A DNA stretch of 64,000 nt, from assembly GCF_046105845.1 (NCBI RefSeq), contig NZ_CP151004.1; one strand, written 5' to 3'. Of the stretch, positions 2,739-63,702 are shown one piece after another (within the stretch, counting starts at the first letter, position 1; every line of letters begins with the position of its first letter). The translations under genes were made by a program, and so were the position numbers. The notes under the pieces are model-generated. The model was not told where the DNA came from. It made no database searches and saw only the letters and a program-made list of their open reading frames with translations. Origin of the DNA: Escherichia coli (lineage in GTDB: Bacteria; Pseudomonadota; Gammaproteobacteria; Enterobacterales; Enterobacteriaceae).

Positions 2739-4351
<1,613 letters not shown>

Positions 4352-4413
4352 TTATTCAGTCGATAGTAACCCGCCCTTCGGGGATAGCAAGCATTTTTTG
4401 CAAAAAGGGGTAG

Positions 4414-4439
4414 ATGCAATCGGTTACGCTCTGTATAAT
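4414..4439 (+). promoter_or_regulatory. guaBA promoter region: candidate PurR-type operator (atgcaatcggttacgc) adjacent to -10 TATAAT (4434-4439)
   Basis: TATAAT hexamer 44 bp upstream of guaB ATG; partial pur-box-like palindrome; recollection of guaB regulation. Confidence 0.4.
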
Positions 4440-4482
4440 GCCGCGGCAATATTTATTAACCACTCTGGTCGAGATATTGCCC

Positions 4483-5949
4483 ATGCTACGTATCGCTAAA
4501 GAAGCTCTGACGTTTGACGACGTTCTCCTCGTTCCTGCTCATTCTACCGTTCTGCCGAATACTGCTGACCTCAGCACCCAGCTGACGAAAACTATTCGTC
4601 TGAATATCCCTATGCTTTCCGCAGCAATGGATACCGTAACGGAAGCGCGCCTGGCTATTGCTCTGGCTCAGGAAGGCGGTATCGGCTTTATCCACAAAAA
4701 TATGTCCATTGAACGCCAGGCGGAAGAAGTTCGCCGTGTGAAAAAACACGAATCTGGCGTGGTGACTGACCCGCAGACTGTTCTGCCAACCACGACGCTG
4801 CGCGAAGTGAAAGAACTGACCGAGCGTAACGGCTTTGCGGGCTACCCGGTCGTTACCGAAGAAAACGAACTGGTGGGTATTATCACCGGTCGTGACGTAC
4901 GTTTTGTTACCGACCTGAGCCAGCCGGTTAGCGTTTACATGACGCCGAAAGAACGTCTGGTCACCGTGCGTGAAGGTGAAGCCCGTGAAGTTGTGCTGGC
5001 AAAAATGCACGAAAAACGCGTTGAAAAAGCGCTGGTGGTTGATGACGAATTCCACCTGATCGGTATGATCACCGTGAAAGACTTCCAGAAAGCGGAACGT
5101 AAACCGAACGCCTGTAAAGACGAGCAAGGCCGTCTGCGTGTTGGTGCAGCGGTTGGTGCTGGCGCTGGTAACGAAGAGCGTGTCGACGCGCTTGTTGCTG
5201 CAGGCGTTGACGTTCTGCTGATCGACTCCTCTCACGGTCACTCTGAAGGCGTTCTGCAGCGTATCCGTGAAACTCGTGCTAAATATCCGGATCTGCAAAT
5301 CATCGGCGGCAACGTGGCAACAGCTGCGGGGGCACGCGCTCTGGCAGAAGCTGGTTGCAGCGCGGTTAAAGTCGGTATCGGCCCTGGCTCTATCTGTACG
5401 ACTCGTATCGTGACTGGCGTAGGTGTTCCGCAGATCACCGCCGTTGCTGATGCAGTAGAAGCCCTGGAAGGCACCGGTATTCCGGTTATCGCTGACGGTG
5501 GTATCCGTTTCTCAGGCGATATCGCCAAAGCTATCGCCGCAGGCGCAAGCGCGGTGATGGTGGGTTCCATGCTGGCAGGTACTGAAGAATCTCCGGGTGA
5601 AATCGAACTCTACCAGGGCCGTTCTTACAAATCTTACCGTGGGATGGGCTCTCTGGGTGCGATGTCCAAAGGTTCTTCTGACCGTTACTTCCAGAGCGAC
5701 AACGCTGCCGACAAACTGGTTCCGGAAGGTATCGAAGGTCGCGTGGCCTATAAAGGTCGCCTGAAAGAGATCATTCACCAGCAGATGGGCGGCCTGCGCT
5801 CCTGTATGGGCCTGACCGGCTGTGGTACTATCGACGAACTGCGTACTAAAGCGGAGTTTGTACGTATCAGCGGTGCGGGCATTCAGGAAAGCCACGTTCA
5901 CGACGTGACCATTACTAAAGAGTCCCCGAACTACCGTCTGGGCTCCTGA
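4483..5949 (+). CDS. guaB: IMP dehydrogenase GuaB
   Basis: 488 aa from [21 protein letters not shown]; CBS domains, catalytic Cys loop [11 protein letters not shown]. Confidence 0.96.
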
Positions 5950-5955
5950 TTCTCT

Positions 5956-5978
5956 TCGCCCGACTTCATGTCGGGCGA
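5956..5978 (+). other. Intercistronic hairpin between guaB and guaA (tcgcccgac ttcat gtcgggcga)
   Basis: 9-bp perfect stem read directly, followed by tttatatt. Confidence 0.45.
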
Positions 5979-6017
5979 TTTATATTATCTGTTTCACTTG
6001 CCTCGGAATAAGCGTCA

Positions 6018-7595
6018 ATGACGGAAAACATTCATAAGCATCGCATCCTCATTCTGGACTTCGGTTCTCAGTACACTCAACTGGTTGCGCGCCGCGTGCG
6101 TGAACTGGGTGTTTACTGCGAACTGTGGGCGTGGGATGTGACAGAAGCACAAATTCGTGACTTCAACCCAAGCGGCATTATTCTTTCCGGCGGCCCGGAA
6201 AGCACCACCGAAGAAAACAGCCCGCGTGCGCCGCAGTATGTTTTTGAAGCAGGCGTACCGGTATTCGGCGTTTGCTATGGCATGCAGACCATGGCAATGC
6301 AGTTGGGCGGTCACGTTGAAGCCTCTAACGAACGTGAATTTGGCTACGCGCAGGTTGAAGTCGTAAACGACAGCGCACTGGTTCGCGGTATTGAAGATGC
6401 TCTGACCGCAGACGGTAAACCTCTGCTCGATGTCTGGATGAGCCACGGCGATAAAGTTACCGCTATCCCGTCCGACTTCGTCACCGTAGCCAGCACCGAA
6501 AGCTGCCCGTTTGCCATTATGGCTAACGAAGAAAAACGCTTCTATGGCGTACAGTTCCACCCGGAAGTGACTCACACCCGTCAGGGTATGCGCATGCTGG
6601 AGCGTTTTGTGCGTGATATCTGCCAGTGTGAAGCCCTGTGGACGCCAGCGAAAATTATCGACGATGCTGTAGCTCGCATCCGCGAGCAGGTAGGCGACGA
6701 TAAAGTCATCCTCGGCCTCTCTGGTGGTGTGGATTCCTCCGTAACCGCAATGCTGCTGCACCGCGCTATCGGTAAAAACCTGACTTGCGTATTCGTCGAC
6801 AACGGCCTGCTGCGTCTCAACGAAGCAGAGCAGGTTCTGGATATGTTTGGCGATCACTTTGGTCTGAACATTGTTCACGTTCCGGCAGAAGATCGCTTCC
6901 TGTCAGCGTTGGCCGGCGAAAACGATCCGGAAGCAAAACGTAAAATCATCGGGCGCGTTTTCGTTGAAGTATTCGATGAAGAAGCACTGAAACTGGAAGA
7001 CGTGAAGTGGCTGGCGCAGGGCACTATCTACCCTGACGTTATTGAATCTGCCGCATCTGCAACCGGTAAAGCACACGTCATCAAATCTCACCACAACGTG
7101 GGCGGCCTGCCGAAAGAGATGAAGATGGGCCTGGTTGAACCGCTGAAAGAGCTGTTCAAAGACGAAGTGCGTAAGATTGGTCTGGAGCTGGGCCTGCCGT
7201 ACGACATGCTGTACCGTCACCCGTTCCCGGGACCAGGCCTCGGCGTTCGTGTACTGGGCGAAGTGAAGAAAGAGTACTGCGACCTGCTGCGCCGTGCTGA
7301 CGCCATCTTCATTGAAGAACTGCGTAAAGCGGACCTGTACGACAAAGTCAGCCAGGCGTTCACCGTCTTCCTGCCGGTACGTTCCGTTGGTGTAATGGGC
7401 GATGGTCGTAAGTATGACTGGGTTGTTTCTCTGCGTGCTGTCGAAACCATCGACTTTATGACCGCACACTGGGCGCATCTGCCGTACGATTTCCTCGGTC
7501 GCGTTTCCAACCGCATTATCAATGAAGTGAACGGTATTTCCCGCGTGGTGTATGACATCAGCGGCAAGCCGCCAGCTACCATTGAGTGGGAGTGA
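6018..7595 (+). CDS. guaA: GMP synthase (glutamine-hydrolysing) GuaA
   Basis: 525 aa; GATase domain then SGGVDSS PP-loop ATPase motif. Confidence 0.97.
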
Positions 7596-7634
7596 GGCTA
7601 TTATTTAAACTATTGTTTTATTTGATTTAGTGAG

Positions 7635-7675
7635 TGCCATTGATGATATTGACTGCATTATCAATGGCATTTTTC
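7635..7675 (+). terminator. Rho-independent terminator of guaA
   Basis: tgccattgat N15 atcaatggca 10-bp stem followed by ttttt. Confidence 0.7.
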
Positions 7676-7928
7676 ATGGTATAAGGCCGACGCTGAATCG
7701 AAGATATAGCAAATACCATGTGACCCTATCAGCAAATGCCATGGTATCGACAACCGGGGGCATTGCAGCGCTGTGCTGATGCCATCGATGCCCGCTTTTG
7801 GTCAGAACCGCTCTCTCGACCCAAGCCTCCAGATCGTTAAATATGCGCCAGAGGAGCACCTCGTGATCGAAATTGTGAACAAGACAGCCGCCGCTCGGAA
7901 TCGAAGTATCCATATGGGTGAATAAAGT

Positions 7929-7957
7929 TTGCGGAAAACACGCTGAGAAAATAGAAA
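7929..7957 (+). promoter_or_regulatory. Weak candidate sigma-70 promoter for the DUF262 gene pair (TTGCGG N17 TAGAAA)
   Basis: Hexamers with 17-bp spacer about 25 bp upstream of ATG 7981; RBS aaggga at 7968-7973. Confidence 0.25.
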
Positions 7958-7980
7958 AGCGTCAATGAAGGGACATAGCA

Positions 7981-9261
7981 ATGGCGATTAACGGAGAGGA
8001 CGGTGTTAGTGCAGTCACCGTGGATGAACTACTCAAGCAAGGCCTTCGGATACCGAACTATCAACGCCCATACAGTTGGGAAGTATCGACCGCTCTACAA
8101 CTGGTGGATGATCTTAGCGAAGCTCTTCGAGATACCGAAAGAAAAGATATTCCCTATGTTTTGGGTGCAATCATTCTTCACGATGATGGTGAGTATCTCA
8201 ATGTAGTCGACGGACAGCAACGTCTGCTGACTTTGCGAATGATTCTTGCGGCCTTAGATCCGATAAATCATCAGATTTCGGTGTCTGGTAACAGCGAAAC
8301 TCCTGTCTCCCTGGTTTGGATAGAGCTTCAAAGGCGCCTGTCGCAGTTGGAAGATAAAAAAGAATTTTTGGATTTTATCTGTCACAAATGTCAGTTGGTG
8401 CGTATTGTGACGGACGATATTGATGAGGCATTTCGTGTCTTTGATTCCCAGAACTATCGCGGCAAACCGCTTGCCCCTCATGACTTGCTCAAAGCACACC
8501 ACCTCCGCGAAATGCACGATGAGTCCGCTGCTATGAAAGTGGCTGTCGTTGAGGCTTGGGAAGCCGTAAATGATGAGGATCTGGACAGGCTTTTTTCTAC
8601 TTTTTTATACCGGATATCCAAGTGGTCACGAGGCGAAAGCTCGCTCGAATTTGCTATTCGGGACATCGGGATGTTTAAGGGAATTTCATCACGATCCCAC
8701 AGATCATTTTCGCCAAATCTGCGATATCACCTTGCAGCACAAGCCGCTATGCCACTTCTAAGTGCATGGGCGGTGTCCTCTACACATGATGCACGAAATG
8801 CCGGGCGCAGCCGCTTTCAGCTTGATGCCCCGATAATCGCTGGGCGCTCATTTTTCGAGATGGTGACATTCATGCTTGACGAATTGAAGATACTGGAAAA
8901 AGAGGTTATCGACAGAGGTTTCAAAAACTTTGGCCCATCTCAAAGTCGCTACCGCTACGTGTACGAATTGTTCATTGCCGCGCTGCTTTGCTATACAAAC
9001 AAGTTTGGCGATGAAGATGTGGATGAAGTGCGAAATAGATTATTCGCATGGGCATATGCCTTGCGGGTCGAGTTACTTCGTGTGCAATTTGTATCTGCTG
9101 ACAACCGAGCTCGAGGTAAAAACGATGCAAATAAATCGCCTTTTGTTTTGCTACGCAACGCGATGACTGGAAGTGTTGTCCGCAAACTTCCAATAGCAAG
9201 TCAGCCATACAACGATAACCACGAAAAGGAACTCGTTGCTTTTATCAAGGGGCTGCAATGA
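7981..9261 (+). CDS. DUF262 (ParB/Srx-like, DGQQR motif) protein, 426 aa, no recognisable nuclease domain
   Basis: Motifs IPNYQRPYSW, VDGQQRLLTL (8209-8223), FRVFDSQNYRGKPLAPHDLLK; stop overlaps next start (ATGA). Confidence 0.88.
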   Translation: MAINGEDGVSAVTVDELLKQGLRIPNYQRPYSWEVSTALQLVDDLSEALRDTERKDIPYVLGAIILHDDGEYLNVVDGQQRLLTLRMILAALDPINHQISVSGNSETPVSLVWIELQRRLSQLEDKKEFLDFICHKCQLVRIVTDDIDEAFRVFDSQNYRGKPLAPHDLLKAHHLREMHDESAAMKVAVVEAWEAVNDEDLDRLFSTFLYRISKWSRGESSLEFAIRDIGMFKGISSRSHRSFSPNLRYHLAAQAAMPLLSAWAVSSTHDARNAGRSRFQLDAPIIAGRSFFEMVTFMLDELKILEKEVIDRGFKNFGPSQSRYRYVYELFIAALLCYTNKFGDEDVDEVRNRLFAWAYALRVELLRVQFVSADNRARGKNDANKSPFVLLRNAMTGSVVRKLPIASQPYNDNHEKELVAFIKGLQ

Positions 9262-11210
9262 GCAAGAAGGAGTTGAGACCCGAACTGATAACAGTAGGCA
9301 AGCTATTCACGGGCTATTATCTGATTCCTATTTATCAACGGAACTATGCTTGGCGGGCCGAACAGATTGAGCAACTTATCAGCGATATTCAAGGCTCGGT
9401 GGTTGGGGGCCAGGACGACTATTTTCTTGGGAACCTTGTTGTAATCAAGCGGGGTAGAGAGGACGAGTTCGAGGTCATAGATGGACAACAACGACTTACA
9501 ACCCTCTATCTGCTTCTGACCTTCCTGGAGCAAGACGGTGAGGGTGGGAAGCTGTCGATTGGCCATGCAGGCCACTTGCAATATGAGTCGCGCGCACGGG
9601 CAACGGAAGCCCTGCGGCGAGTAGCACAGGAGGCGGCTAAGGGGCACGTCCGACCGCAGGGCTCCACGAGTAATGCAGATGCTGGCATCCATGAAGGCTA
9701 CAGCATCATCAATCAGTTCTTCAAACAAAATGAAACCCTTAATCGCTCACGCGAAAAATTCTCCGATTTCTTGCTAAAGAAGGTTACTGTCGTCCGTGCC
9801 TCGCTGCCACCCAATACCGACCTCAATCGCTACTTCGAGATCATGAACACTCGTGGGCAGCAACTCAAGCAGGTTGATATTGTTAAGGCTCGCCTGATGA
9901 GCAAGCTGCCCAATCAATATGAACGCGAATGCTTCGCGTGGGTTTGGGATGCCTGTGCTGACATGGATTCTTATGTCCAGATGTCTCTGACCCGTGGTGA
10001 CACCAGTTTACGAAACAAAGTATTTGGCGATGAATGGTCCTGGCTGGAGGTGACCAGCTTCGCGTCGCTAATGGAAAGTCGTCCGCAATCCGACATCAGT
10101 TCATTAAGGCAATCCTCCGAAGGGGTATCGTTGTCCTTGGATGAGGCGTTGTCAAAATACGCTAAAGAGATCGAGTCAAATTCCACTGAAGACGAGGGCA
10201 ACGAGCGGTTTCGTTCGACTATTGAGTTTCCGGCCTTTCTGCTACACGTTCTAAGAATTATGAAAGGCGATGAGGTCGAAGACGAAGGCCAGCTTGACGA
10301 CAAGCGCCTCATCAAGTCATTTGACGACGCCGTAAATAATGTACCCGATGCTAAAGCCGATTGGGTGCGTAGCTTTGCATTTATGCTTCTTAAGTGCCGT
10401 AACCTCTTCGATGGCTTCATCTTGAAGCGTCAATTCACGGCGAACATCGGTGACGATGGCGATTGGTCTCTCCAGCGATTGAAGAAAGGCGGTGCGGACA
10501 AGAAGCCAGCCCCGACGTACATCCATGTTTTCTCGGCCAGCAATGGAAACTTGGAGGAGGACAGCGGTGCTGACCCACATACCCGAGATGTATTGTTGCT
10601 TCAGTCCATGCTTCGGATTACCTACACTTCTCCGCGAACGATGCACTGGATTACCAAAGTTCTTCGCTGGCTATCCGTTAAAGCCCCTCAAGACGCGAAA
10701 CATGCGGATCTTGCCGATTTGTTGAAGGGGTATGCCCGCAGCAAGGTTAAAGAGACATTCCCCTTTGAGGAAGATCAGCAACCACAAGGGTTTGGTATCA
10801 GCCGTATCGTCTTTTCATACCTCGACTATCTTCTGTTGAGTGATTCCTCAAAACGAGATTTCAAATTTCAGTTCAGAACTTCCATTGAGCACTTTTATCC
10901 ACAGCATCCGGACAAAGAACAGTCGGGCGCGGCTGTTTCAGGTTCTAGCCTTAACCTGCTTGGCAACCTCGCGCTCGTAAGCGTCAGCGCGAACTCAAAA
11001 TTCAGCAATAGCCTTCCCAGAGCGAAGGCCGAAAACTTCAAGGATACGATTGAACTTCAAAGTCCCAAGCTCAAGAGAATGGCGGAAATCGCTCGAAATA
11101 CAAGCTGGGACGATCAGCAGATAACAGCACATCATGAAGAGATGGTGACATTGCTTCGTGATGATGTAAGTCTGGTGGAGGCAAGCGGAAGATCCTACCC
11201 GGGGCGTTGA
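9258..11210 (+). CDS. GmrSD-like protein: N-terminal DUF262 plus C-terminal DUF1524 His-Me-finger nuclease motif, 650 aa
   Basis: IPIYQRNYAW, IDGQQRLTTL (9480-9494), YFEIMNTRGQQLKQVD; C-terminal SIEHFYPQHP (10887-10904) and GNLALVSVSANSKFSN. Confidence 0.88.
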   Translation: MSKKELRPELITVGKLFTGYYLIPIYQRNYAWRAEQIEQLISDIQGSVVGGQDDYFLGNLVVIKRGREDEFEVIDGQQRLTTLYLLLTFLEQDGEGGKLSIGHAGHLQYESRARATEALRRVAQEAAKGHVRPQGSTSNADAGIHEGYSIINQFFKQNETLNRSREKFSDFLLKKVTVVRASLPPNTDLNRYFEIMNTRGQQLKQVDIVKARLMSKLPNQYERECFAWVWDACADMDSYVQMSLTRGDTSLRNKVFGDEWSWLEVTSFASLMESRPQSDISSLRQSSEGVSLSLDEALSKYAKEIESNSTEDEGNERFRSTIEFPAFLLHVLRIMKGDEVEDEGQLDDKRLIKSFDDAVNNVPDAKADWVRSFAFMLLKCRNLFDGFILKRQFTANIGDDGDWSLQRLKKGGADKKPAPTYIHVFSASNGNLEEDSGADPHTRDVLLLQSMLRITYTSPRTMHWITKVLRWLSVKAPQDAKHADLADLLKGYARSKVKETFPFEEDQQPQGFGISRIVFSYLDYLLLSDSSKRDFKFQFRTSIEHFYPQHPDKEQSGAAVSGSSLNLLGNLALVSVSANSKFSNSLPRAKAENFKDTIELQSPKLKRMAEIARNTSWDDQQITAHHEEMVTLLRDDVSLVEASGRSYPGR

Positions 11211-11443
11211 CTTCTTTGAATAACCGCTTTTGGACGAAAGTCCCTTGTGGAGTGCAAGTTGTCAGTCTAAAAGCGTTTTGCGTCAGGCGACACGATCAGT
11301 ACAGCTCCCAGGTTTTCTTACCATGGTATTTTGTGTGGTATCGACATGCAAATATAATGCTATTCTATTGATTTTACAGTGTTTTAAGGCGGCATTAATC
11401 ATCGAGTGGGAATGATTTGACCCTGCACTATGAATGAACAAAA

Positions 11444-11469
11444 CCCTCTGTTACTACAGAGGGTTTTTT
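11444..11469 (+). terminator. Rho-independent terminator between the convergent DUF262 operon and yfgI
   Basis: ccctctg ttacta cagaggg followed by tttttt; A-run on the other side makes it partly bidirectional. Confidence 0.65.
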
Positions 11470-11507
11470 ATCTTCAAGAATTATAGGCTTGAAGTTACTT
11501 ACATCGA

Positions 11508-12047
11508 TTAATTAAACCAGCTGTCCGATTTGTTCTCTTCTGCTTTGCCCACGCTTTTCATCAGATCGCGACCGCCTTCAGTCATATTTCTGTTTGCGTC
11601 AGCTTCAGATTGCACCACATCGGTTTGCGCAGCTTTGTGCTTCAGTTCCTGATCGATAAATTCGTTTTCTCGCTTAACGCGGGCTTCTTCTTTCGCCAGC
11701 GCCAGTTTTTGTTTCTGAATCTCTAAGCTGCGTAGCTCATCTTCATAACTTTGATCGCGTTTTTTGTCCGCAGTGGCTTCGGCATCCAGTTTATCCTGAC
11801 GAGCTTTCTTATTTGCCGCTGCCGTTGCCGCTCTTTTGTTAGCGGCGGCCTGGGCGTTTGCGCGACGTTGCTTCTCTTGCTGGATTTCCCTGTTGCGCTC
11901 CGCGACCCATTCGTCATGCTGCCTTTGCTCTTCATTTTTACCTTGCTGTTCCGCTTCTGCGACAGCAGAGAGTTGATCCTGCAATGATGAGGCGATAGCC
12001 GGATAGCTTAAGGAGGCTAAGATGGCGCAAAGAAAAACTTTCTTCAT
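11508..12047 (-). CDS. yfgI: Periplasmic coiled-coil protein YfgI
   Basis: 179 aa, signal peptide MKKVFLCAILASLSYPAIA, charged repeats; K-12 synteny. Confidence 0.88.
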   Translation of the reverse strand: MKKVFLCAILASLSYPAIASSLQDQLSAVAEAEQQGKNEEQRQHDEWVAERNREIQQEKQRRANAQAAANKRAATAAANKKARQDKLDAEATADKKRDQSYEDELRSLEIQKQKLALAKEEARVKRENEFIDQELKHKAAQTDVVQSEADANRNMTEGGRDLMKSVGKAEENKSDSWFN

Positions 12048-31635: not shown

Positions 31636-32177
31636 AGCTGCTCCTTAGCCACCAGCGGTTCATCTGTGTCGTCGTTGATCAGCGTCGCGCGTTGTTTGCA
31701 TTCCGGGCAGACGCTCGCTTGCGCCCGTAACATTTCGCGGTTTTGTGGCGCATTTTGTTGCTGTGCCAACAGTTCTGCAGCCAGTGCGACGGTTTTTTGC
31801 GGGGCAAACGGGCGTTCGCAACGGCTGCAACGTTGTAGATGGAACGTCGCGCGGGTATAGAGATCGGCTTTATTGGTGACGGTCAGTTCAAAGTTATTGG
31901 TAAGCTGAATGGCTCTGGTCGGGCACACTTCTTCACAACGTCCGCAGTAAATACAACGCCCCAGATAGAGCTGCCAGGTGCGCGAATTTTGCTGGTCGTC
32001 GGTCTGGATAGTCAGCGCATTTGCCGGACAAGCACAGGCGCAGGCACCACAGGCAATACATTGGCTGGGCATCAGGTCCGGTTTCCCGCGAAAGCCTGGG
32101 CTGACCTCCAGTGGCGCGAAGGGATATTTCACCGTCGCGGTTCCGGCGCGCATAATAGTTTTCAGTAACTTCAGCAT
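31632..32177 (-). CDS. hyfH: Hydrogenase-4 ferredoxin subunit HyfH (2x[4Fe-4S])
   Basis: 181 aa; CxxCxxCxxxCP motifs. Confidence 0.93.
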
Positions 32178-32186
32178 CTTCTGTCC

Positions 32187-33902
32187 TTACTTCAGCGGCG
32201 AACGGTTACGATCAATGCCGTAGCGTTCGATCTCTTTATACGGCACGGTTTTTGACTGGCGCTTGCGCACATCAACCAGCGTCACACGGTCGGTACAGGA
32301 GTAGCAGGGATCAAGGCTACCGATAATTAGCGGTGCGTCAGAAACGGTATTGCCGCGCAGCATGTAACGCAGCACTGGCCAGTTGGCGTAGGTGGCGGCA
32401 CGACAGCGCCAGCGGAACAATTTTTGGTTATCACCGAGCATGCTCCAGTGCACGTCTTCACCGCGTGGCGCTTCAACAAAGCCCAGCGCGAATGCGTGAG
32501 GTTTATAGCTAAAGCCTTCGGTCAGCAGTGGGGTATCCGGCATGTTGTCGAGGGCAAATTCCAGCATTGCCAGCGAATCAAACGTCTCTTTGACACGGAC
32601 CATCACGCGGGAGAAGACATCGCCGCCGGTAAAGGTAAACAGCGTTTTGGGAATATTGCCGTAGTCGGCGTAGGGGTGATCAAAGCGCAAATCACGGGCA
32701 AAACCACTGCCGCGGATCAGCGGCCCGACAGGGCTATAATCACGGGCGATTTGTCGGTCGAGAATGCCAATGCCCTGAGTGCGTTGTTCCATATTCGGCG
32801 TGGCAAGCAGCATCTCTACCAGCTCCGACACGTCGGCGCGCATCTCGCGCACCAGTTTCAGCGTTTGCAGACGTTGCTCTTTGAGAATATCGCGGCGAAC
32901 ACCACCAATCAGATTCAGACCGTAGGTTTTACGCGACCCGGTCAGCAATTCCGCCATCGTCATCGACTTTTCCCGCACGCGGAAAAATTGCATAAAGCCG
33001 GTATCAAATCCAACAAAATGGCAGGAGAGGCCAAGGTTGAGCAAATGACTATGCAGCCGTTCGACTTCCAGCAGAATCGAGCGAATAGTATGCGCTCGTT
33101 GCGGCACCTCAATCCCCAGTGCATTTTCAACCGAGTTGGTATAGGCCACACTGTGGGCAAAACCGCAAATCCCACACACGCGGTCGGATAAGAAGGTCAC
33201 TTCGTTGTAGCCCATCCGCGTTTCTGCCAGTTTCTCCATGCCGCGATGGACATAAAACAGGCGGTAATCAGCATCGACAATTTGCTCGCCATCCACAAAC
33301 AAGCGGAAGTGACCTGGTTCATCGGAGGTGATATGCAGCGGGCCGACAGGGATCACCCGCGCATCGCTGTTGCCCTCGTTGATAAACGGATACGTTTCGG
33401 TATCAGTCGTCGGTTCTGGGCGCAGTCGATAATCCATCGCGTCTTTGCGCAGCGGATGCATATCTTCCGGCCAGTCATCGGGCAACACCAGCCGACGCTG
33501 ATCCGGCAGGCCAACCGGAATCAGCCCGTACATATCGCGAATTTCTCGCTCGCCCCAGACCGCGGCAGGGACGCGCGGTGTGACTGACGGAAACTCCCGA
33601 CTGTCGGCATCGACCAGTGCCTTCACCACAATCCAGCATTTTTCGGCCCCTTCCATAGAAAGGGCGTAATAAACCGCGTAATGACCGTTAAGTGTCCGCT
33701 CGTCGTTGCCAAACAGGACCGGAAGCCAGCCATCATGTTGATAATAAAGATAATGTACAACGTCAGGCAGCAGATTGATTTTCACCGTAATGGTGACCTG
33801 TTCAGGCGTTTGTCGCTCTTCATCCAGCACCGCGCCGGGGAACTGCGTTTTCAGGGCGGCGAGAATCGCTTCGCCACGATTTGACGATGAATTAACGTTC
33901 AC
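32187..33902 (-). CDS. hyfG: Hydrogenase-4 large (NiFe) subunit HyfG; start codon uncertain
   Basis: RxCGxC N-terminal and DPCxxC C-terminal NiFe ligand motifs; start placed at GTG (VNVNSSS), ORF track extends further. Confidence 0.85.
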
Positions 33903-35472
33903 TGTGTTTCTCCGAAACAGATGCGGTGCCTGAAGGCAAAAAATCATGCCAGGTGCTACGTTGTGCAGGCAGGTCGTGCGTCCCTGAGAGGACTATAGTG
34001 GAAGCGCCTGCCAGGATCCTGATGACAGGTTGTGGAATATGCGTTCCCATCGCCAGCATCATGACCAGCAGAATCACCATTGGCGAGGTGGTCAACCAGC
34101 CAAGTTCACCCCGGTTAACGGCCTGCGGCGGTTTCGCCATTAACACCCGCGCAGCCATCCGTACCAGGCCCGCCAGCACCAGCGTTAACAGCAATAACAG
34201 CAGGACGATAAGCAGCAGATGATTACGCGCCAGTCCGGCGGTAACGGTCATAAATTCGCTAAGAAAAATGTTGAAGGGCGGCATCCCGGCCAGCGCCAGC
34301 GCACCGCCGCCAAACAACACGGCGGTAAATGGCATGATTTTGAGCATCCCACAGACGACGTTGAGATCGCGCGTGCCGTACTTGAGCAGTACATTGCCGG
34401 AACCGCAGAACAACAGCGTTTTGGCCAGACTGTGGTTTAAGGTGTGCAGCAGCGCGGCAAAAATTCCCAGCGGCCCGCCAATGCCTAACGCCACCGCGAC
34501 CAGTCCCATGTTCTCCACGCTGGAGTACGCCAGCAGACGCTTAATGTCCCGCTGTACCAGAATGAAAAATGCCGCCACGGCAACCGACAACATGCCGAAG
34601 ATGAGCAACAACCGGTTGGGGAAATCGCTGCCGATGGCCTGGCAAATAATGATGTAATAGCGAATCAGCACCAACAGCGCGCAGTTCAGCAATACGGCGG
34701 AGAGCAGGGCGCTGACCGGACTCGGCGCTTCACTGTGAGCATCCGGCAGCCAGGCGTGCATGGGAAATAGCCCGGTTTTGGTGCCAAAGCCAATTAGCAC
34801 AAACACAAAGGCCAACAGCATTAATGTTGGGTCAAGCAAGGACGATTGCTTAAGAACCTCGCTCCAGAATATCGCCATTTCTGCCTGCGGCATAACGCTG
34901 GCGGCGTTGGCGTATACCAGCACGGTACCGAACAGACCAAAAGCGACACCAACAGTACAAATAATGATGTACTTCCATGCAGCTTCCAGCGATGAACGCT
35001 GACCGTAAATGCCTACCAGAAACGCCGAGCTTAAGGTGGTGGCTTCGATCGCCGCCCACATCACAATCAGGTTATTGCTGGTAACAACCAGCAGCATGGT
35101 GAACAAAAACAGATGGAAGAAACCGTAGTAATCGCACAGCGTAACGGGTGAAAGCTCGCCGTGCTCCACTTCATGACGCATGTAGCCAATCGAGTAAACA
35201 CCGGTGAGAAAGCCAATCACACCAAGAATGGCGAGGAACAAACCGCCCAGACCATCAATATGAAGCCACAGTCCCGCAGCGAATATTTCTCCCGCATCAG
35301 CGGCAGTTTGGACCACCCAGAGTGCCAGAATCAGCAGCAGTGTGATCCCTAAGCTATGTAATACTGTCACCGCGCAAGTCGCAGAGTGCCCCCGTTTCCG
35401 GCAGGCAAAACAGAGCAGCGAAAAAAGCAGCGGCGTGAGCAGGAGTAAAGCGAACATCACAGAATAACTCAT
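33892..35472 (-). CDS. hyfF: Hydrogenase-4 membrane subunit HyfF (NuoM/N-like antiporter module)
   Basis: 526 aa polytopic. Confidence 0.93.
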
Positions 35473-35476
35473 CTCA

Positions 35477-36127
35477 TTATCCCTTCAGCGCGGTCAAGTT
35501 GTTCACGTCCAGCGTGCCGTGGGTACGCCATATTTTTCTTGCCAGTAACACCATCACAATGACGGCGAAGATGGCGTCGGTAGCGATACCAATTTCCACC
35601 AGTTCCGGTGCACGCCAGGCTAGAAGCGCCAGCACCAGATGGGAGCCGTTTTCCATCAGGCAGTAACCAAAGATTTGCCGCAGGATATTGCGCTGGCTGA
35701 CAATGCACAGCAGGCCAAGCAGAAAATGACCTAACGCTACCGCCAGCGCCGGTTTCAGCCCGGTAGCCATCGGTAGCTTCACGGGCTGAACGACAAATGC
35801 GCAAAGCAGGACAATTAACGCCGCGAGCAGTGCCATCATTGCCGGACCGAATAACGCTTTTTCCGGGATATTCTGGGGAATATTTCGTGCAGCGTAAGTC
35901 ATGATTAACGGTACCAGCAGCACTTTGGTGATAAAGGCGCTGGCGGACCAGATCAGCAGTTGCTCTGCGGCGAACAGGCACGAGAGAGTGGCGAAAATAG
36001 ACACCAGCACCAGCGACTGGCAGGCGTAAAATCCGCATGACAGGCGATAGCTTTTGACGCTAATCACAAACAGCGATGTCAGCATCATCAGTCCCGCCAG
36101 ATTATTTACGATCATAGAACCGGTCAT
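35477..36127 (-). CDS. hyfE: Hydrogenase-4 membrane subunit HyfE
   Basis: 216 aa polytopic. Confidence 0.92.
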
Positions 36128-36138
36128 TCATCATCTCC

Positions 36139-37578
36139 TTACTGCAACCAGGTCGCGGCGATTACGCTGGAAATCAGCGACATCACAATCAGTACAATCA
36201 ACACCAGGCGCATTGATCCTGGCAGCGGTGCGGCATCGGCGACGGCCTCGCTCGGTTTGCCAGGCACGACGCGACCAAACCAGCGAATAAACCAGGCGAA
36301 ACTGGCGACCGATTCAATCATCAGCAGAATCATGGCGGGCAGCAGGATCCAGTACTCCACTGACAACGCAAAACCGGCGGCAAACAGCGGGAATTTACTG
36401 AAGAAGCCGTTGAACGGCGGTACGCCGGTAATCGCCAGCGCTGCCACGCAGAAACCCACGCCTGGCAACGGCAGGGTGTGCAATACGCCACGCAGACGCG
36501 GCAACAAGCGCGTGCCGCAGCTGTAACTCAGCGCACCTGCTACAAGGAAAAACAGGCTTTTAGCGAACGCGTGGTTGACGATGTAGGCGATGCTACCCTC
36601 CAGCGCCAGCCGCGAGCCGAAGATGGAGAGCGACAAGCCGAAGAACATCCAGCCAAGTTGAGTGATGGTCGACCAGGCCAGCAACCGCTTCATATCCTGC
36701 TGTGGCAAATACATCAGGAAGCCGTAAAGAATGGTGACCAGTGCCATAACCATGCCAACGCCGCCAATCACATGCGGGATATTGCCGCCGTCGATAATGG
36801 CACGGGCAAAAATGTAAACGCCCACTTTCACCATCGATGCGGCGTGGAGATAGGCGCTGATCGGTGTTGGCGCTTCCATTGCGTCCGGTAGCCACGCTTG
36901 CATCGGTAGCTGGGCCGATTTCCCCCACGCGGCAAACAGGATGCCGCCATAAACCAGATAACGTGCGTCGCCGTGTAACTCGCTCATCGCGCTAAGCGCA
37001 AACGTTCCGGTCTGCAAAAACAGCGTGGCGGCGGCAAGATACAACCCCAGCGAACCGATATGAGTGATAAGTAACGCTTTTAGTGCTGAACGCTGCGCTT
37101 TATCGCTCTGGTAATAACTGATCAACGCCCAGGAGCAGCCGCCCGTAATTTCAAAAAACAACAACTGACCGAGCAGCGTCGAGGAGAGTACCAGTCCCGC
37201 CATCGCGCCGATAAAAACCAGCAAAAATGCGTAATAACGATTCGTGCCGTTATGCGGGTGTTCGCGATTTTTATCCGTCAGATAACCCGTGGAGTAGATC
37301 GTGACCAGCAAACCGAGAAACACCACCACAAACAGAATCAGCGTACTCACGCGATCAATGACCAGGCCAAACAACGCCACATCCCCCACGTTGACCAACG
37401 TCAACGTGACGGCAACTTTATCGGCCTGATAAAACGCGGAGATCAGTGACAACATGCACAGCGTGGTCAGCGCGGCGAACAAAACCCCCCATTCGGCGGC
37501 CCGACGTTGTGGCGAAAACGAAACGACCAGTGCGCCGATAAAAGGCAGCATTAACGTCGTCAGAGCAAGATTTTCCAT
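36139..37578 (-). CDS. hyfD: Hydrogenase-4 membrane subunit HyfD (NuoL/M-like)
   Basis: 479 aa polytopic. Confidence 0.93.
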   Translation of the reverse strand: MENLALTTLMLPFIGALVVSFSPQRRAAEWGVLFAALTTLCMLSLISAFYQADKVAVTLTLVNVGDVALFGLVIDRVSTLILFVVVFLGLLVTIYSTGYLTDKNREHPHNGTNRYYAFLLVFIGAMAGLVLSSTLLGQLLFFEITGGCSWALISYYQSDKAQRSALKALLITHIGSLGLYLAAATLFLQTGTFALSAMSELHGDARYLVYGGILFAAWGKSAQLPMQAWLPDAMEAPTPISAYLHAASMVKVGVYIFARAIIDGGNIPHVIGGVGMVMALVTILYGFLMYLPQQDMKRLLAWSTITQLGWMFFGLSLSIFGSRLALEGSIAYIVNHAFAKSLFFLVAGALSYSCGTRLLPRLRGVLHTLPLPGVGFCVAALAITGVPPFNGFFSKFPLFAAGFALSVEYWILLPAMILLMIESVASFAWFIRWFGRVVPGKPSEAVADAAPLPGSMRLVLIVLIVMSLISSVIAATWLQ

Positions 37579-37594
37579 ATTCCGTCAGTGCTCC

Positions 37595-38542
37595 TTACAG
37601 ACCGGTTAACCAGAAGACCCATGCAAGCGCAGCAAGGCTGAAGCCAAGCCAGGTCACATGGTGAATGAGTAAAAAACGCCCGCGTGCCAGCGTGTTTTCT
37701 GCGATTGAGGCCAGTACAAAAATCAGCAAAACCTTGAGCAGCGTAACGACAAGAGAAGTCAGCAGGCAGGCGAGAGAAAGTTCTTGCGCGCGCCCAAAGG
37801 GCAGAAACAGGGCCACAAACAGTGCTGCCATCACGACCTGTTTCAGCCCCAGCCCCCATTTCGCCAGCGCCAGCCCGGCACCGGAATATTCGGTCAGCGG
37901 GCCTTCCTGTAATTCCTGTTCTGCTTCAGCAACATCAAAGGGAATTTTTCCCATCTCAATGAAGCAGGCAAAACCACAGGCCAGTAACGCCAGTACGGTG
38001 GTTAGCGGCGAGTTCCAGCCCGTCGCCAGCGTCTTGCTGATCATCTCGATATGCGTGGAATCCGCTATCAGCGCCAATACCAGCAGTGAGAGAATGAGCA
38101 TGGGTTCGACCAGAATGCCGAGCGTCAACTCGCGACTGGCACCGACTCCCGCAAACGGGCTTCCGGTATCCAGCCCTGAAAGAGCAAAGAAAAAACGAAA
38201 CAGGGCAAGAAGATAGATAAGGGTGATCAGATCGCCGCCGCCCGCAAAAGGGGAAACGGTAATAAATAGTGGCAGGGCCATCGCCAGCACCAGCATGCTG
38301 CTGATTAATACCCACGGCATCAGGCGGAACATCAGACCTGAAGATGTCGGCGCAACTTCCTGGCGTTTAAACAGTTTGTGGATATCGCGATAATCCTGCC
38401 AGATCCCCGGTCCGCGACGGGAGTGCATTCGCGCGCGTATCTGCCGGGAAATACCCGTAAAAAGCGGGGTTAGCATCAGCAGAATCACGGCCTGTGCTAA
38501 CGCAAAAATGACCAGATATCCGTCGCAAAGAGTTTGTCTCAT
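37595..38542 (-). CDS. hyfC: Hydrogenase-4 membrane subunit HyfC (NuoH-like)
   Basis: 315 aa from MRQTLCDGYLVIF. Confidence 0.9.
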   Translation of the reverse strand: MRQTLCDGYLVIFALAQAVILLMLTPLFTGISRQIRARMHSRRGPGIWQDYRDIHKLFKRQEVAPTSSGLMFRLMPWVLISSMLVLAMALPLFITVSPFAGGGDLITLIYLLALFRFFFALSGLDTGSPFAGVGASRELTLGILVEPMLILSLLVLALIADSTHIEMISKTLATGWNSPLTTVLALLACGFACFIEMGKIPFDVAEAEQELQEGPLTEYSGAGLALAKWGLGLKQVVMAALFVALFLPFGRAQELSLACLLTSLVVTLLKVLLIFVLASIAENTLARGRFLLIHHVTWLGFSLAALAWVFWLTGL

Positions 38543-38552
38543 GGTGATTTCC

Positions 38553-40571
38553 TTAGACGGCAATAGCGATTAGCAGCACAACCAGTGCGGCGACCACATA
38601 CAGGCAATAGAGACGAAAGTCGCCGCTTTGCAGATGCTGTATTTCTTTGGCCAGCCGTTGGGTGGCGCTCACGATGGGGCGGATCACCCGCTCATCCCAG
38701 AAGGGTTCTGTGCTCTGAGCCCTGGCGGTGACATGCGCAAGACCTTTGTTCAGCCTCAGCGTAGGGTCGAGCTGTTGTCGTAGACGAAATAGCGCACAAA
38801 AGACCACACGCAGCGGCTGCATCACGCCATTGCCTGACGGGGCCATCGCATTTTCCCAGCCGTAGCCGCATGCCCAGGCATCTCCTGTGCGACGAAACGC
38901 TGCGCGGCGCGAACGACACCACAGCCAGTAAAGGCCAGGCAGCAAAGGCATCGCCAGTAGTAACAGCAACAGTAATGAGGGAGTGACCCGTGTATGAAAC
39001 GTGCCGGGTACAAGTGCTATTCCGCTGGCGACAGTGACGGGAGGGGTATTGGTAAACGCATGGGCAATGTGCATTATCTTCGGTGCCAGCCAACTGGCAC
39101 TAAGCGCAATTAATATGCAGAGTGCCGCGAGCAGTAGCATGGCGACGATCATCGTATTTGGCACTTCCTGTGCCTCTTCAGCGTGTGTACTGCGCGGCGC
39201 TCCACAGAAAGTAATACCGTACATTTTGACGAAGCACATTACTGCCAGCCCACCAGTGACTGCCAGCATCACCATAGCAATAGGACCCGCAAGTTGTAGC
39301 GCTACGGCTTCCACACGACTTAGTGAGAACAGCGACTGCCAGGTGTACCATTCGCTGATAAAACCATTCAGCGGAGGAATGGCTGATATCGCGAGGCAAC
39401 CAATCAGGCATGCTGCGGCTGTCCACGGCATACGTTTCGCCAGTGCCCCCATTTTTTCCATGTCGTGGGTATGCAAACGCGAAATAATCGCACCCGCGCC
39501 GAGAAACAGCAGCCCTTTGAACAGCGCATGGTTGAGCAGATGAAACAGCGCGCCGAGCAGTCCAACAACGGTGAGCAGCGGGTCGTGCAGTGACAGACCG
39601 ACCATCGCCACACCGACCGCCAGCAAAATAATGCCGACGTTTTCGACGGTACTCCAGGCCAGCAGCCGTTTGATATCCTGTTCCGCCAGCGCATACAGCA
39701 CGCCCAGGAGCGCGGAGATTGCGCCGATCGCCATCACCAGAATGCCCCACCACAGCGGCAAACCCGTTTGCGCCAGCAGGTCCATCGCTACTTTCAGGAT
39801 GCCGAAAATACCGATTTTGACCATTACGCCAGACATCAACGCCGAAGCGTGCGATGGTGCGGCAGGGTGAGCGCGTGGCAACCAGCTGTGCAACGGCATC
39901 ATCCCGGCTTTCGCGCCAAAACCGAAGAAGGCCAGCAGGAACACCGCCGACGCCAGCCCCGGAGAAAGTGAAAGCGTGCGGAAACTGGCAAAATCGAGGC
40001 TGCCGCTTTCGCGCCACATCAGCAAGAAGGCGATCATAATCAGCACCGATCCGGCGTGGGCGATAAAAAAGTAGAGCATGCCAGCGTTGATCGACGTTTT
40101 ATCCTGCCTGGCAATGACCAGAAACCAGGAAGACAGCGACATCATTTCAAACAGCACGATGAACCAAAAAGCGTTGTCCATCACCAGCAGGGCAACCATC
40201 GATGCGATGAAAATATTCATAAAGAAGCCCATCGCCGCCGCGCCTTTGCCCTCGTATTCGCGCATATAAGTCAATGAATAGAGCGAACAAACTACCACCA
40301 GCAAGGAGATAACCAGCACCATAAATGCCGAGAGGCTATCCATTCGCAGGGTTAAATCGGCAAAGTCAAAAGGGGTTGCAAAACGGGCGACTAAAGTTAC
40401 GCCTGCATGTAATTGCGTAATTCCGCTGATGATGCCAATCACGCCGCCCACCAGCGATGTGATGCCGGAAAGCTTAATAGCCAGTCTGTCCAGACCGAGT
40501 AAAAACAGCGAAGCCAGACTGGCAAACAGATAGAGAATCAGCGACCAGGTTAATAATTGCAGGGCATCCAT
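38553..40571 (-). CDS. hyfB: Hydrogenase-4 membrane subunit HyfB (NuoL-like)
   Basis: 672 aa polytopic. Confidence 0.93.
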   Translation of the reverse strand: MDALQLLTWSLILYLFASLASLFLLGLDRLAIKLSGITSLVGGVIGIISGITQLHAGVTLVARFATPFDFADLTLRMDSLSAFMVLVISLLVVVCSLYSLTYMREYEGKGAAAMGFFMNIFIASMVALLVMDNAFWFIVLFEMMSLSSWFLVIARQDKTSINAGMLYFFIAHAGSVLIMIAFLLMWRESGSLDFASFRTLSLSPGLASAVFLLAFFGFGAKAGMMPLHSWLPRAHPAAPSHASALMSGVMVKIGIFGILKVAMDLLAQTGLPLWWGILVMAIGAISALLGVLYALAEQDIKRLLAWSTVENVGIILLAVGVAMVGLSLHDPLLTVVGLLGALFHLLNHALFKGLLFLGAGAIISRLHTHDMEKMGALAKRMPWTAAACLIGCLAISAIPPLNGFISEWYTWQSLFSLSRVEAVALQLAGPIAMVMLAVTGGLAVMCFVKMYGITFCGAPRSTHAEEAQEVPNTMIVAMLLLAALCILIALSASWLAPKIMHIAHAFTNTPPVTVASGIALVPGTFHTRVTPSLLLLLLLAMPLLPGLYWLWCRSRRAAFRRTGDAWACGYGWENAMAPSGNGVMQPLRVVFCALFRLRQQLDPTLRLNKGLAHVTARAQSTEPFWDERVIRPIVSATQRLAKEIQHLQSGDFRLYCLYVVAALVVLLIAIAV

Positions 40572-41188
40572 TAGCGTTGCTCCTGAGTGAGGGAAAGGGG
40601 ATCCTCCTCGCCATTGGCAAACCAGCTTGCGGCAAGGCGCTGTTTTTCTTTCATCTGACGTTGCAGGCTATCGTCGGTGATCAGCCGTAACGCCTGATTC
40701 GGGCAAGCGCGAACGCAGGCCGGACCTTCTGGCAAGAAATCACACAGGTCGCATTTCACCGCGACGGTCTGGACACCCGGTTCCCAGCGCAGCAAAGCAT
40801 GTTGTGTTGGCGCGTTTTCTTCGCCGTCTTTGAGTGAGCCTTCAGCCTGAAAAACATATTGCGCAGGGGCATTCACCGGACGGCTTCCTGAAGCGCTGAT
40901 TGCGCCAAATGGGCAGACCACGGCGCAAAGCTTGCAGCCAATACAGAGGCTTTCGTTGAGTTGGATCGCATCATCCCTCTGGGAGATGGCATTGACCGGG
41001 CAGACCTGCAGGCAAGGGGCTTCCTCACAGTGATGACACACGACAGGGGCAGTGAGTGTTGACGTCTTCGCCAGGGCCAGGCGCGGGTGTTGCTGTAAAC
41101 CTTGCGTTTTATGCACGTCCGAACAGGCAGCGAGACAGGTATTACATCCTGTACACCACAGTGGTTCGGCCACCACAAAGCGGTTCAT
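40571..41188 (-). CDS. hyfA: Hydrogenase-4 ferredoxin subunit HyfA
   Basis: 205 aa from MNRFVVAEPLWCTGC; multiple 4Fe-4S Cys clusters. Confidence 0.9.
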   Translation of the reverse strand: MNRFVVAEPLWCTGCNTCLAACSDVHKTQGLQQHPRLALAKTSTLTAPVVCHHCEEAPCLQVCPVNAISQRDDAIQLNESLCIGCKLCAVVCPFGAISASGSRPVNAPAQYVFQAEGSLKDGEENAPTQHALLRWEPGVQTVAVKCDLCDFLPEGPACVRACPNQALRLITDDSLQRQMKEKQRLAASWFANGEEDPLSLTQEQR

Positions 41189-41228
41189 GTCGGCTCCTTG
41201 AAAATGATATGAAACATTGCATTTCATA

Positions 41229-62732: not shown

Positions 62733-62751
62733 ATAACACTCCGTGGCTGGT

Positions 62752-63702
62752 TTATAGTTTGGCGGCAAGAAGATCTTCCAGTTTGCGTTGATCAACGGCG
62801 AACAGACGAATGCCTTCAGACAGTTTTTCTACCGCCATCGCATCCTGATTGTGCTCCCAACGGAACTCCGCTTCGCTCATGGGAGCTGGGCGTGGGAACG
62901 TCTGAGAAGGTGGGATTAATTTACGTACCACTGGCGAAACTTTTTCCTGCAGCTCCTTCAGCAAATTCGGTGCGATAGTCAGTCGATCGCAGCCGGTTAA
63001 GGCGAGGATTTGTTCGGTGCGACGGAAGCTCGCGCCCATCACAATGGTTTCATAGTGGTGTTGCTTATAGTAGTCGTAGATATTGCGCACCGATTTAACG
63101 CCCGGATCTTCTTCCACCACATACGGGTCCATCGGCTTGCGTGCCTGATACCAGTCATAAATACGCCCGACAAACGGCGAAATCAGAAATACGCCTGCTT
63201 CTGCACAGGCCCGCGCCTGTGCAAAAGAAAACAGCAGCGTCAGGTTGCAGTTAATACCTTCTTTTTCCAGCTCTTCTGCCGCGCGAATTCCTTCCCAGGT
63301 TGAAGCCAGCTTGATCAGAATGCGTGATTTCTCAACGCCTTGTTGCTGATACAAGTCCACCAGATGGCGCGCCTTCTCAATGCTCTTTTCTTTATCAAAA
63401 GAGAGGCGTGCATCAACTTCTGTTGACACGCGACCGGGTACGATTTTGAGAATTTCAGCACCGAAATTGACCGCCAGTTTGTCACATGCTGCGACCACCT
63501 GTTGTTCCTGGGTTTTGCCATTTTTTCTACCCCAGGCGATAGCATCGTCTATTAAATGCTCATATTGTGATAATCCGGCAGCCTTGAGTAACAGCGAAGG
63601 ATTGGTGGTGGCATCCTGGGGATGATAATGGCGAATGGACTCAATATCGCCGCTGTCTGCCACGACAGTGGTGAACTGTTTGATGCCGTCTAACTCGTTC
63701 AT
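62752..63702 (-). CDS. talA: Transaldolase A TalA
   Basis: 316 aa; [21 protein letters not shown]. Confidence 0.95.

Follow-up and report, generated by a model that had tools for sequence, protein, structure and literature searches.

The 64-kb stretch of Escherichia coli chromosome analysed here, hereafter the window, carries two adjacent open reading frames (ORFs), ORF-A and ORF-B, within the gene order xseA, guaB, guaA, ORF-A, ORF-B, yfgI, yfgH, yfgG, pdeF, ppx and onward. In most E. coli the gap between guaA and yfgI is short (93 bp in a K-12-like reference), and the pair is present in 78 of the 5,426 complete E. coli genomes, where it is always annotated as just "DUF262 domain-containing protein (x2)". 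ORF-B (9258-11210, plus strand) had been singled out from the sequence as a candidate modification-dependent restriction enzyme of the GmrSD kind, and the 650-aa frame claimed for it is present in the ORF listing of the window, starts with ATG and lies on the plus strand. ORF-A encodes 426 aa at 7981-9261 (plus strand), directly upstream of ORF-B. The original prediction was right about the family and the domains of ORF-B, but it treated that protein alone and left the partner ORF-A undescribed; the clone that it proposed (7900-11470) nonetheless spans ORF-A. The two genes are considered here together as a candidate two-subunit restriction system.

Domains, motifs and predicted folds of the two proteins

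ORF-B resembles the nuclease subunits TgvB and GmrSD2 and consists of a DUF262 domain, a helical linker and a DUF1524 nuclease domain of the predicted His-Me finger type. Searches of Pfam with hmmscan place GmrSD_N (DUF262, PF03235) on aa 15-214 (nt 9300-9899; independent E-value 4.9e-33, model positions 3-199 of 199) and GmrSD_C (DUF1524, PF07510) on aa 521-631 (nt 10818-11150; independent E-value 4.1e-14), sequence matches that are far beyond chance. Both of the domains that had been read from motifs are recovered by these profile hidden Markov models, and the order DUF262-linker-DUF1524 is upheld by Pfam. The N-terminal region contains the motif IPIYQRNYAW (aa 23-32, nt 9324-9353) with its QR pair (Q27 and R28, 9336-9341), the DGQQR motif (D75-R79, 9480-9494) and the motif YFEIMNTRGQQLKQVD (aa 192-207) with the FxxxN element FEIMN (F193-N197, 9834-9848), all on the plus strand. 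Across 42 homologues the QR and DGQQR motifs are invariant, as are F193, E194 and N197 of the FxxxN element. The C-terminal region contains EHFYPQ (aa 544-549, nt 10887-10904, plus strand), in which E544-H545 (10887-10892) is invariant, aligns with essential residues of TgvB and GmrSD2 and includes the predicted catalytic histidine that would end the first beta strand of the His-Me finger. The motif GNLALVSVSANSKFSN (aa 569-584, plus strand) follows, and the homologue alignment identifies N570, N579 and N584 (10965-11009, plus strand) as the asparagines of an H...N...N His-Me finger. The catalytic positions of ORF-B are invariant across the 42 homologues, N570 and N579 among them, and N584 is kept in at least 90%. 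All of the motifs originally quoted for ORF-B lie where they had been placed, and the two nucleotide positions given for them, those of DGQQR and EHFYPQ, are exact. A stop-codon polymorphism at 11196-11210 affects the length of the protein: the window, Kluyvera and the Klebsiella plasmids have a 650-aa form, whereas the annotation of the otherwise 99.9%-identical strain A10 gives 646 aa.

ORF-A (7981-9261) is a TgvA/GmrS1-like partner protein. It contains a DUF262 domain of the ParB-like NTPase fold at aa 19-175 (nt 8035-8505) and a helical DUF7834 domain at aa 186-414 (nt 8536-9222), with Pfam E-values of 1.5e-27 for GmrSD_N and 9.9e-55 for DUF7834, and in Pfam searches it has no nuclease domain. 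Its QR motif (Q28 and R29, 8062-8067) and its DGQQR motif (D77-R81, 8209-8223), the latter being the predicted loop for nucleoside triphosphate binding and hydrolysis, are invariant in 41 homologues, and in its FxxxN motif FDSQN (F154-N158, 8440-8454) the residues F154, D155, Q157 and N158 are invariant; all three lie on the plus strand. The equivalent of the DGQQR motif in TgvA is needed for defence (PMC11411939). ORF-A and ORF-B are distant paralogues of each other (24% identity, E 2e-11), and the QR, DGQQR and FxxxN motifs are intact in both subunits among the 41-42 homologues and the window proteins. NCBIfam gives no match for either ORF, PHROGs gives matches to unnamed families only, and a literature search on DUF7834 returned nothing.

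Homology to experimentally tested systems extends to both proteins. For these comparisons the sequences of GmrS1 and GmrSD2 of the ECOR17 system were rebuilt from published alignments (PMC12373910), and the full-length TgvB of Vibrio cholerae was represented by P0241. ORF-B is 33% identical to ECOR17 GmrSD2 over its full length (E 9e-90) and 25% identical to V. cholerae TgvB, with aa 6-633 aligned against 7-656 (E 2e-38). ORF-A is 31% identical to ECOR17 GmrS1 (E 6e-57) and 27% identical to V. cholerae TgvA (E 2e-28), and both of these alignments run through the helical domain past DUF262. In the alignments of the nuclease subunits, TgvB H571 and N602 correspond to ORF-B H545 and N579, and GmrSD2 E582/H583 to ORF-B E544/H545. 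Defence is abolished by the H571A and N602A substitutions in TgvB (PMC11411939).

AlphaFold2 (AF2) models built from the 41-42-sequence alignments have a predicted local distance difference test (pLDDT) score of 71.7 and a predicted template modelling (TM) score (pTM) of 0.62 for ORF-B, and of 72.5 and 0.54 for ORF-A. In the ORF-B model, a strand at 543-545 that ends at H545 is followed by a strand at 573-575 and then by helices bearing N579 and N584. This arrangement is consistent with a beta-beta-alpha His-Me finger that would have an insertion between the two strands, and with the nuclease fold that had been expected at the C-terminus. Foldseek comparison of the ORF-B model with the PDB yields significant matches to GmrSD-family proteins only, namely DndI (9jfl, 4e-8) and SspE (5e-8 to 1e-6), and the ORF-A model finds DndI and SspE first and then ParB CTPase domains. 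These fold matches and the full-length homology to the tested proteins TgvB and GmrSD2 bear out the assignment of ORF-B to the GmrSD superfamily of modification-dependent type IV enzymes.

Among solved structures, the pair is matched best, in sequence and in fold, by DndI (9jfl) and SspE (6jiv, 7drr), and the PADLOC SspE and 'Orf5' profiles also match the DUF262 region, as would be expected if the pair were a phosphorothioate (PT)-sensing effector of the SspE/DndI type with an activity that hinges on PT modification of host DNA. It is scarcely credible that this is so, since the matches are weak (E 1e-5 to 1e-10 by sequence and mostly in the DUF262 core, with 13% identity by fold), whereas the doublets are homologous over the full length and match far more strongly, and since dnd and ssp genes are absent from the surroundings of the pair. 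The 64-kb window contains no dnd, ssp, brx or methyltransferase genes, and none adjoin the pair in the other contexts examined. For ssp, dnd and brx this agrees with what had first been stated for the window, and it is corroborated by the RefSeq annotation of strain A10, which shows housekeeping genes only over the collinear span, and by five other genomic contexts.

Conservation of the gene pair and the cassette that carries it

The stop codon of ORF-A and the start codon of ORF-B share the sequence ATGA at 9258-9261 (plus strand), an overlap which suggests that translation of the two genes may be coupled. Intact loci were compared from Kluyvera, Nocardioides (Actinobacteria), three contigs of Janthinobacterium, a Klebsiella IncFIB plasmid and several metagenomic contigs. 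Each of them has a DUF262+DUF7834 gene immediately 5' of a DUF262+DUF1524 gene, with the same 4-nt overlap between the two. This arrangement, overlap included, is kept across Proteobacteria and Actinobacteria with otherwise unrelated neighbours, and as these neighbours vary by context there is no conserved third component. The ratio of nonsynonymous to synonymous substitution rates (dN/dS) relative to the Klebsiella plasmid copy (about 96% nucleotide identity) is 0.11 for ORF-A and 0.23 for ORF-B, indicating that both genes are held by selection, the partner ORF-A more strongly.

The complete DUF262-linker-DUF1524 architecture of ORF-B, together with the fact that its top PADLOC profiles are the single-gene HEC-06 models (9e-37), raises the question of whether it is a self-sufficient single-chain GmrSD like Eco94GmrSD, CT596 GmrSD, BrxU and HEC-06, with ORF-A an independent or dispensable paralogue. 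One Kluyvera contig lends itself to the same reading, as a class A beta-lactamase gene and a DDE transposase lie inside its ORF-A while its ORF-B is intact (L014 1858-4859, equivalent to window 8112-8116); this insertion is a natural knock-out of the partner subunit. The best stretches reported for the match to HEC-06 cover only aa ~2-222 of ORF-B, the same profiles are matched by ORF-A, and the system here has two genes. The alignment of ORF-B with GmrSD_CT596 is limited to aa 6-87 (E 4e-9), stopping after about 90 residues with nothing significant elsewhere. The tighter constraint on ORF-A and its upstream position with a 4-nt overlap in all intact loci examined also argue against a dispensable partner. 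In both studied homologous doublets, TgvAB and GmrSD-ECOR17, the nuclease subunit by itself gives no defence (PMC11411939, PMC11014532, PMC12373910), even if overexpressed, and in TgvAB both genes are needed and DGQQR mutants of either subunit, the partner included, lose defence (PMC11411939). It is improbable, given this evidence, that ORF-B acts as a single chain, and from its sequence relationships it is best described as the predicted nuclease subunit of a two-gene doublet rather than as a stand-alone GmrSD.

The doublet is carried on a 3,820-bp unit inserted between 7-bp direct repeats of GAGTGGG, of which the empty site has one copy. The left repeat (7584-7590) lies inside the last codons of guaA and forms the left border of the cassette, and the right repeat (11404-11410) forms the right border, beyond which lie the native 3' end of guaA and a shared terminator. 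The cassette has the coordinates 7584-11410 in the window, 7092-10918 in locus L005 and 4327-8154 in locus L015. Its leader (7591-7980, plus strand) provides a replacement guaA stop codon and a hairpin with a T-run, is 95.8% identical to the plasmid copy and presumably bears the promoter of the operon. The 3' non-coding tail (11211-11403, plus strand) shares 91% identity with the plasmid copy. Just past the guaA stop, at 7635-7674, lies an inverted repeat (TGCCATTGAT ... ATCAATGGCA; loop of 15 nt) and then TTTTT; this element is not called by the terminator scan and may be the replacement guaA terminator. The results of the promoter and terminator scan are not above the shuffled expectation, the sole terminator called being the one shared by yfgI and guaA at 11440-11467, and Rfam gives no match at E<=0.1 over 7300-11700. 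Small ORFs are present in both cassette ends, at 7674-7913 (minus strand, 79 aa) and 11230-11415 (plus strand, 61 aa); they have no PHROG match and are probably non-coding, and the second terminates in ...IIEWE*, the native 3' end of guaA in its displaced position.

In Kluyvera, too, the unit is found 3' of guaA with identical GAGTGGG borders. More than 450 Klebsiella IncFIB plasmids, most of them conjugative, have it between sopAB and umuDC, with 96.2% identity along its entire length, non-coding ends included. No integrase is encoded on the cassette. The common borders in E. coli, Kluyvera and Klebsiella plasmids point to site-specific insertion, presumably catalysed in trans. Other E. coli strains have prophages between guaA and yfgI, and these end at the core that also bounds the cassette. 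In E. coli ETEC4090 and UTAK-6, the right end of the prophage joins the chromosome at the core ATTGAGTGGG|AATGA (L003 and L004, ~8990-9010, equivalent to window 11400-11415). The possibility that the cassette is a remnant of such guaA-site prophages was considered and rejected, as the cores are identical but the arms are without similarity. In strains MB15, HN257 and ECN24 the match to the pair region falls into two pieces, with the IS3-family insertion sequence ISSen4 annotated under the match.

Relatives of the pair are found in several other surroundings. A pair of 88% identity lies directly 3' of rve(TniA)-TniB-TniQ genes in a metagenomic proteobacterium (L017 and L018, 1-4500), a position that marks it as cargo of a Tn5053/Tn7-like transposon. 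The Janthinobacterium pair (L009-L011, 1-6434) comes after a type I restriction-modification (R-M) system (HsdS, HsdR), an AlbA_2/Schlafen-HATPase protein and a YgjP-like protein, in a defence island that recalls the type I-embedded form of TgvAB. An SMC-like ATPase and a Multi_ubiq/Prok-E2/ThiF gene set, a bacterial ubiquitin-like system, are encoded some 5 kb away from a metagenomic relative (L007 14638-17917), which suggests that this copy too lies in a defence island.

On the Klebsiella plasmids the cassette adjoins partition genes, and the ECOR17 doublet is grossly toxic when both of its genes are overexpressed (PMC12373910), observations that would suit a toxin-antitoxin, abortive-infection or plasmid-addiction module with ORF-B as a toxic nuclease kept in check by ORF-A. 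A module of this type is very unlikely. The ECOR17 genes were each overexpressed singly and gross toxicity was reported only on joint induction, which is the opposite of antitoxin logic; ORF-A retains all of its catalytic NTPase motifs; and TgvAB cultures are still growing after infection at a multiplicity of infection of up to 5, indicating direct defence (PMC11411939).

Proposed mechanism, substrate and published occurrences

It is highly probable that ORF-A and ORF-B constitute a two-subunit modification-dependent type IV restriction system belonging to the TgvAB/GmrS1-GmrSD2 doublet branch of the GmrSD superfamily. The anatomy of the two proteins, their motifs, the coupling of the genes, purifying selection and homology to both subunits of tested systems are established at this locus. 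In the mechanism proposed, the translationally coupled ORF-A and ORF-B would most likely assemble into a hetero-complex whose paired ParB-like DUF262 domains would sense hypermodified phage DNA. Nucleotide binding and hydrolysis would then license the His-Me nuclease of ORF-B, an order of events that is inferred, and ORF-B would cut the invading DNA directly, with the cell surviving. The system would need no cognate methylase. What is carried over from the tested homologues, and would apply here by analogy, is the requirement for the two subunits, the residues essential in the NTPase and nuclease domains, the dependence on glucosylated 5-hydroxymethylcytosine (g-hmC) and the non-abortive character of the defence.

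Several points weigh against this interpretation or against parts of it. No promoter above chance was detected for the pair. The AF2 confidence is moderate (pLDDT about 72) and the global TM-scores to solved relatives are low (0.22-0.29), as is expected of flexible multi-domain proteins. The closest solved structures are the PT-sensing DndI and SspE, neither of them a g-hmC enzyme. The 25-33% identity to tested doublets leaves room for another substrate, and the doublet GrwAB also targets 7-deazaguanine phages. A further point comes from the survey of Silas et al. (Nat Commun 2025, PMC12373910), which places the orthologues from Klebsiella plasmids, WP_000037308 for ORF-B and WP_016246209 for ORF-A, in its clusters CLS_016 and CLS_017 (Supplementary Data 6). 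There, 20 clusters were sorted into 12 single-gene and 3 two-gene systems, and according to the text of the article one representative of each of the 15 groups was synthesised and assayed against T-even phages. That text reports T-even restriction in 5 of 12 groups beyond three named ones (8 of 15 overall) and does not name CLS_016/017 among the active groups, whereas CLS_018/019 is named in a legend. The CLS_016/017 doublet may consequently be inactive against T-even phages.

The likeliest substrate would be the g-hmC DNA of T-even phages, a proposal by analogy with the tested doublets for which the chances are about even. It is uncertain because of the low identity to those doublets, the wider range of GrwAB and the nature of the hosts, which include Klebsiella plasmids and Actinobacteria. 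The same two-subunit type IV enzyme might instead recognize another target, such as 7-deazaguanine, non-glucosylated hmC, arabinosyl-hmC or modified thymidines, or act mainly on incoming plasmids and mobile elements. This is a credible if less favoured possibility: sequence identity to the g-hmC-specific doublets is just 25-33%, GrwAB restricts Queuovirinae and Tevenvirinae alike, T-even restriction was reported for only 8 of the 15 enterobacterial GmrSD groups with CLS_016/017 unnamed among them in the text, and the carriers include the >450 Klebsiella conjugative plasmids and Actinobacteria, hosts outside T-even coliphage infection. Set against it, both tested doublets with the same gene order, TgvAB and GmrSD-ECOR17, are g-hmC-dependent, and there is no positive evidence for another substrate. 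A more specific proposal, and a doubtful one, is that the CLS_016/017 doublet reads a non-g-hmC modification or mainly polices plasmids and other elements, and that the GAGTGGG unit is a trans-mobilised defence cassette hijacking the integrase of the prophages that use the guaA core. If true, a non-g-hmC or plasmid-policing role would explain the fixation of the cassette on hundreds of Klebsiella IncFIB(K) conjugative plasmids.

Orthologues of the pair are also present in the dataset of O'Hara 2024, where Table S5 (MacSyFinder TgvAB matches with sequences, PMC11411939) holds near-identical relatives of both ORFs, found by peptide search. These include the pairs AFJ46164/5 of Shimwellia blattae, ARA75559/60 of Pectobacterium brasiliense, and AIX87315/6 and ANK50160/1 of K. 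pneumoniae plasmids. The strain A10 accessions of the pair are absent from this supplement when searched by accession, the orthologues having been found with peptides. The A10 accessions WP_000037311 and WP_039720167 are likewise absent from the supplementary files of the GrwAB study (PMC12137116), in a lookup by accession only and with no peptide search. Systems of this kind were published in 2024-2025; the window pair is an ordinary example of them, and its exact cluster is already in the datasets of two papers.

For the two genes behind guaA that are labelled "DUF262 domain-containing protein", the annotation can be revised to a TgvAB-type two-subunit type IV restriction system, with the probability given above. 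As the cassette is very common on Klebsiella conjugative plasmids, this bears on the host range of modified-DNA therapy phages and on plasmid-borne immunity. The practical value is modest, and substrate specificity and the cooperation of the DUF262 subunits are questions of the whole published family, not raised newly by this locus.

Elsewhere in the window, positions 1-2885 lie in the interior of a gene for a very large adhesion-domain protein upstream of xseA, according to the strain A10 annotation. The AT skew is strongly positive (0.16-0.27) at 32000-41200, coinciding with the minus-strand hyf (hydrogenase 4) operon of membrane proteins, and this overlap makes it an ordinary compositional effect. 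A transketolase gene at 60729-62795 (minus strand) is an intact ORF in the window and a pseudogene with an internal stop in the annotation of the near-identical strain A10.

Comparison with tested GmrSD systems

The best solved matches of both ORFs, the PT-sensing GmrSD-family nickases SspE and DndI (PDB 6jiv, 7drr, 9jfl), share the logic of a DUF262 NTPase combined with a His-Me nuclease. They differ in being single proteins and in relying on modification genes of the host, ssp or dnd, that the window lacks, and their identity in structural alignment is only about 13%. The single-chain GmrSD enzymes (EcoCT596/Eco94, BrxU, which is HEC-05, and HEC-06) have the same DUF262-helical linker-DUF1524 layout as ORF-B and the same DGQQR and His-Me motifs, but they work as single proteins, as homodimers. 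BrxU is not among the phmmer PDB hits of ORF-B at E<=1, and its structure (7p9k) is a weak fold match to the ORF-B model (Foldseek E 0.028). The BREX or Hma context of BrxU is absent around the window pair.

Three published systems contain two DUF262 proteins: TgvAB, the ECOR17 GmrS1/GmrSD2 system and GrwAB (PMC11411939, PMC12373910, PMC12137116). GrwAB, from V. cholerae of the WASA lineage, is likewise a two-protein GmrSD-like type IV system, in which the NTPase motifs of both DUF262 domains and the DUF1524 nuclease are needed, and its targets include both T-even phages and Queuovirinae with 7-deazaguanine-modified DNA (PMC12137116). Its nuclease subunit is encoded first and its partner GrwB is larger with several extra domains, whereas here the partner comes first and is the smaller protein.

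TgvAB (VC1767/VC1766), encoded on VPI-2 of V. cholerae, consists of TgvA with DUF262 only and TgvB with DUF262 and DUF1524, encoded by overlapping ORFs (PMC11411939, PMC11014532), and it restricts T-even phages via glucosyl-hmC (PMC11411939, PMC11014532). The window pair has the same gene order, domain content and overlapping ORFs, and it retains the DGQQR motifs and the counterparts of TgvB H571 and N602. TgvAB lies inside a type I R-M operon, whereas the window pair is alone on a guaA-targeted cassette with guaA and yfgI as neighbours. The embedded position gave Tgv its name and is not demanded by the two-gene model of the TgvAB authors, according to whom stand-alone tgvAB is 17 times commoner than the type I-embedded form (PMC11411939). 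The ORFs overlap by 8 bp in V. cholerae and by 4 bp in the window, and sequence identity is low.

The ECOR17 system depends on both genes, is inactivated by E582A/H583A, acts on g-hmC DNA only and is blocked by the injected T4 protein Ip3 (PMC12373910). Its two-gene requirement, g-hmC-only restriction and inhibition by Ip3 are established by experiment, whereas the window pair is read from its sequence. The two systems fall into different clusters (CLS_003/004 there, CLS_016/017 here), and the ECOR17 proteins are longer (483 and 680 aa compared with 426 and 650 aa). They share the same gene order, with a DUF262-only protein followed by a protein combining DUF262 with a His-Me/HNH nuclease, and E. 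coli is the host of both. GmrS1/GmrSD2 is the closest tested relative of both ORF-A and ORF-B.

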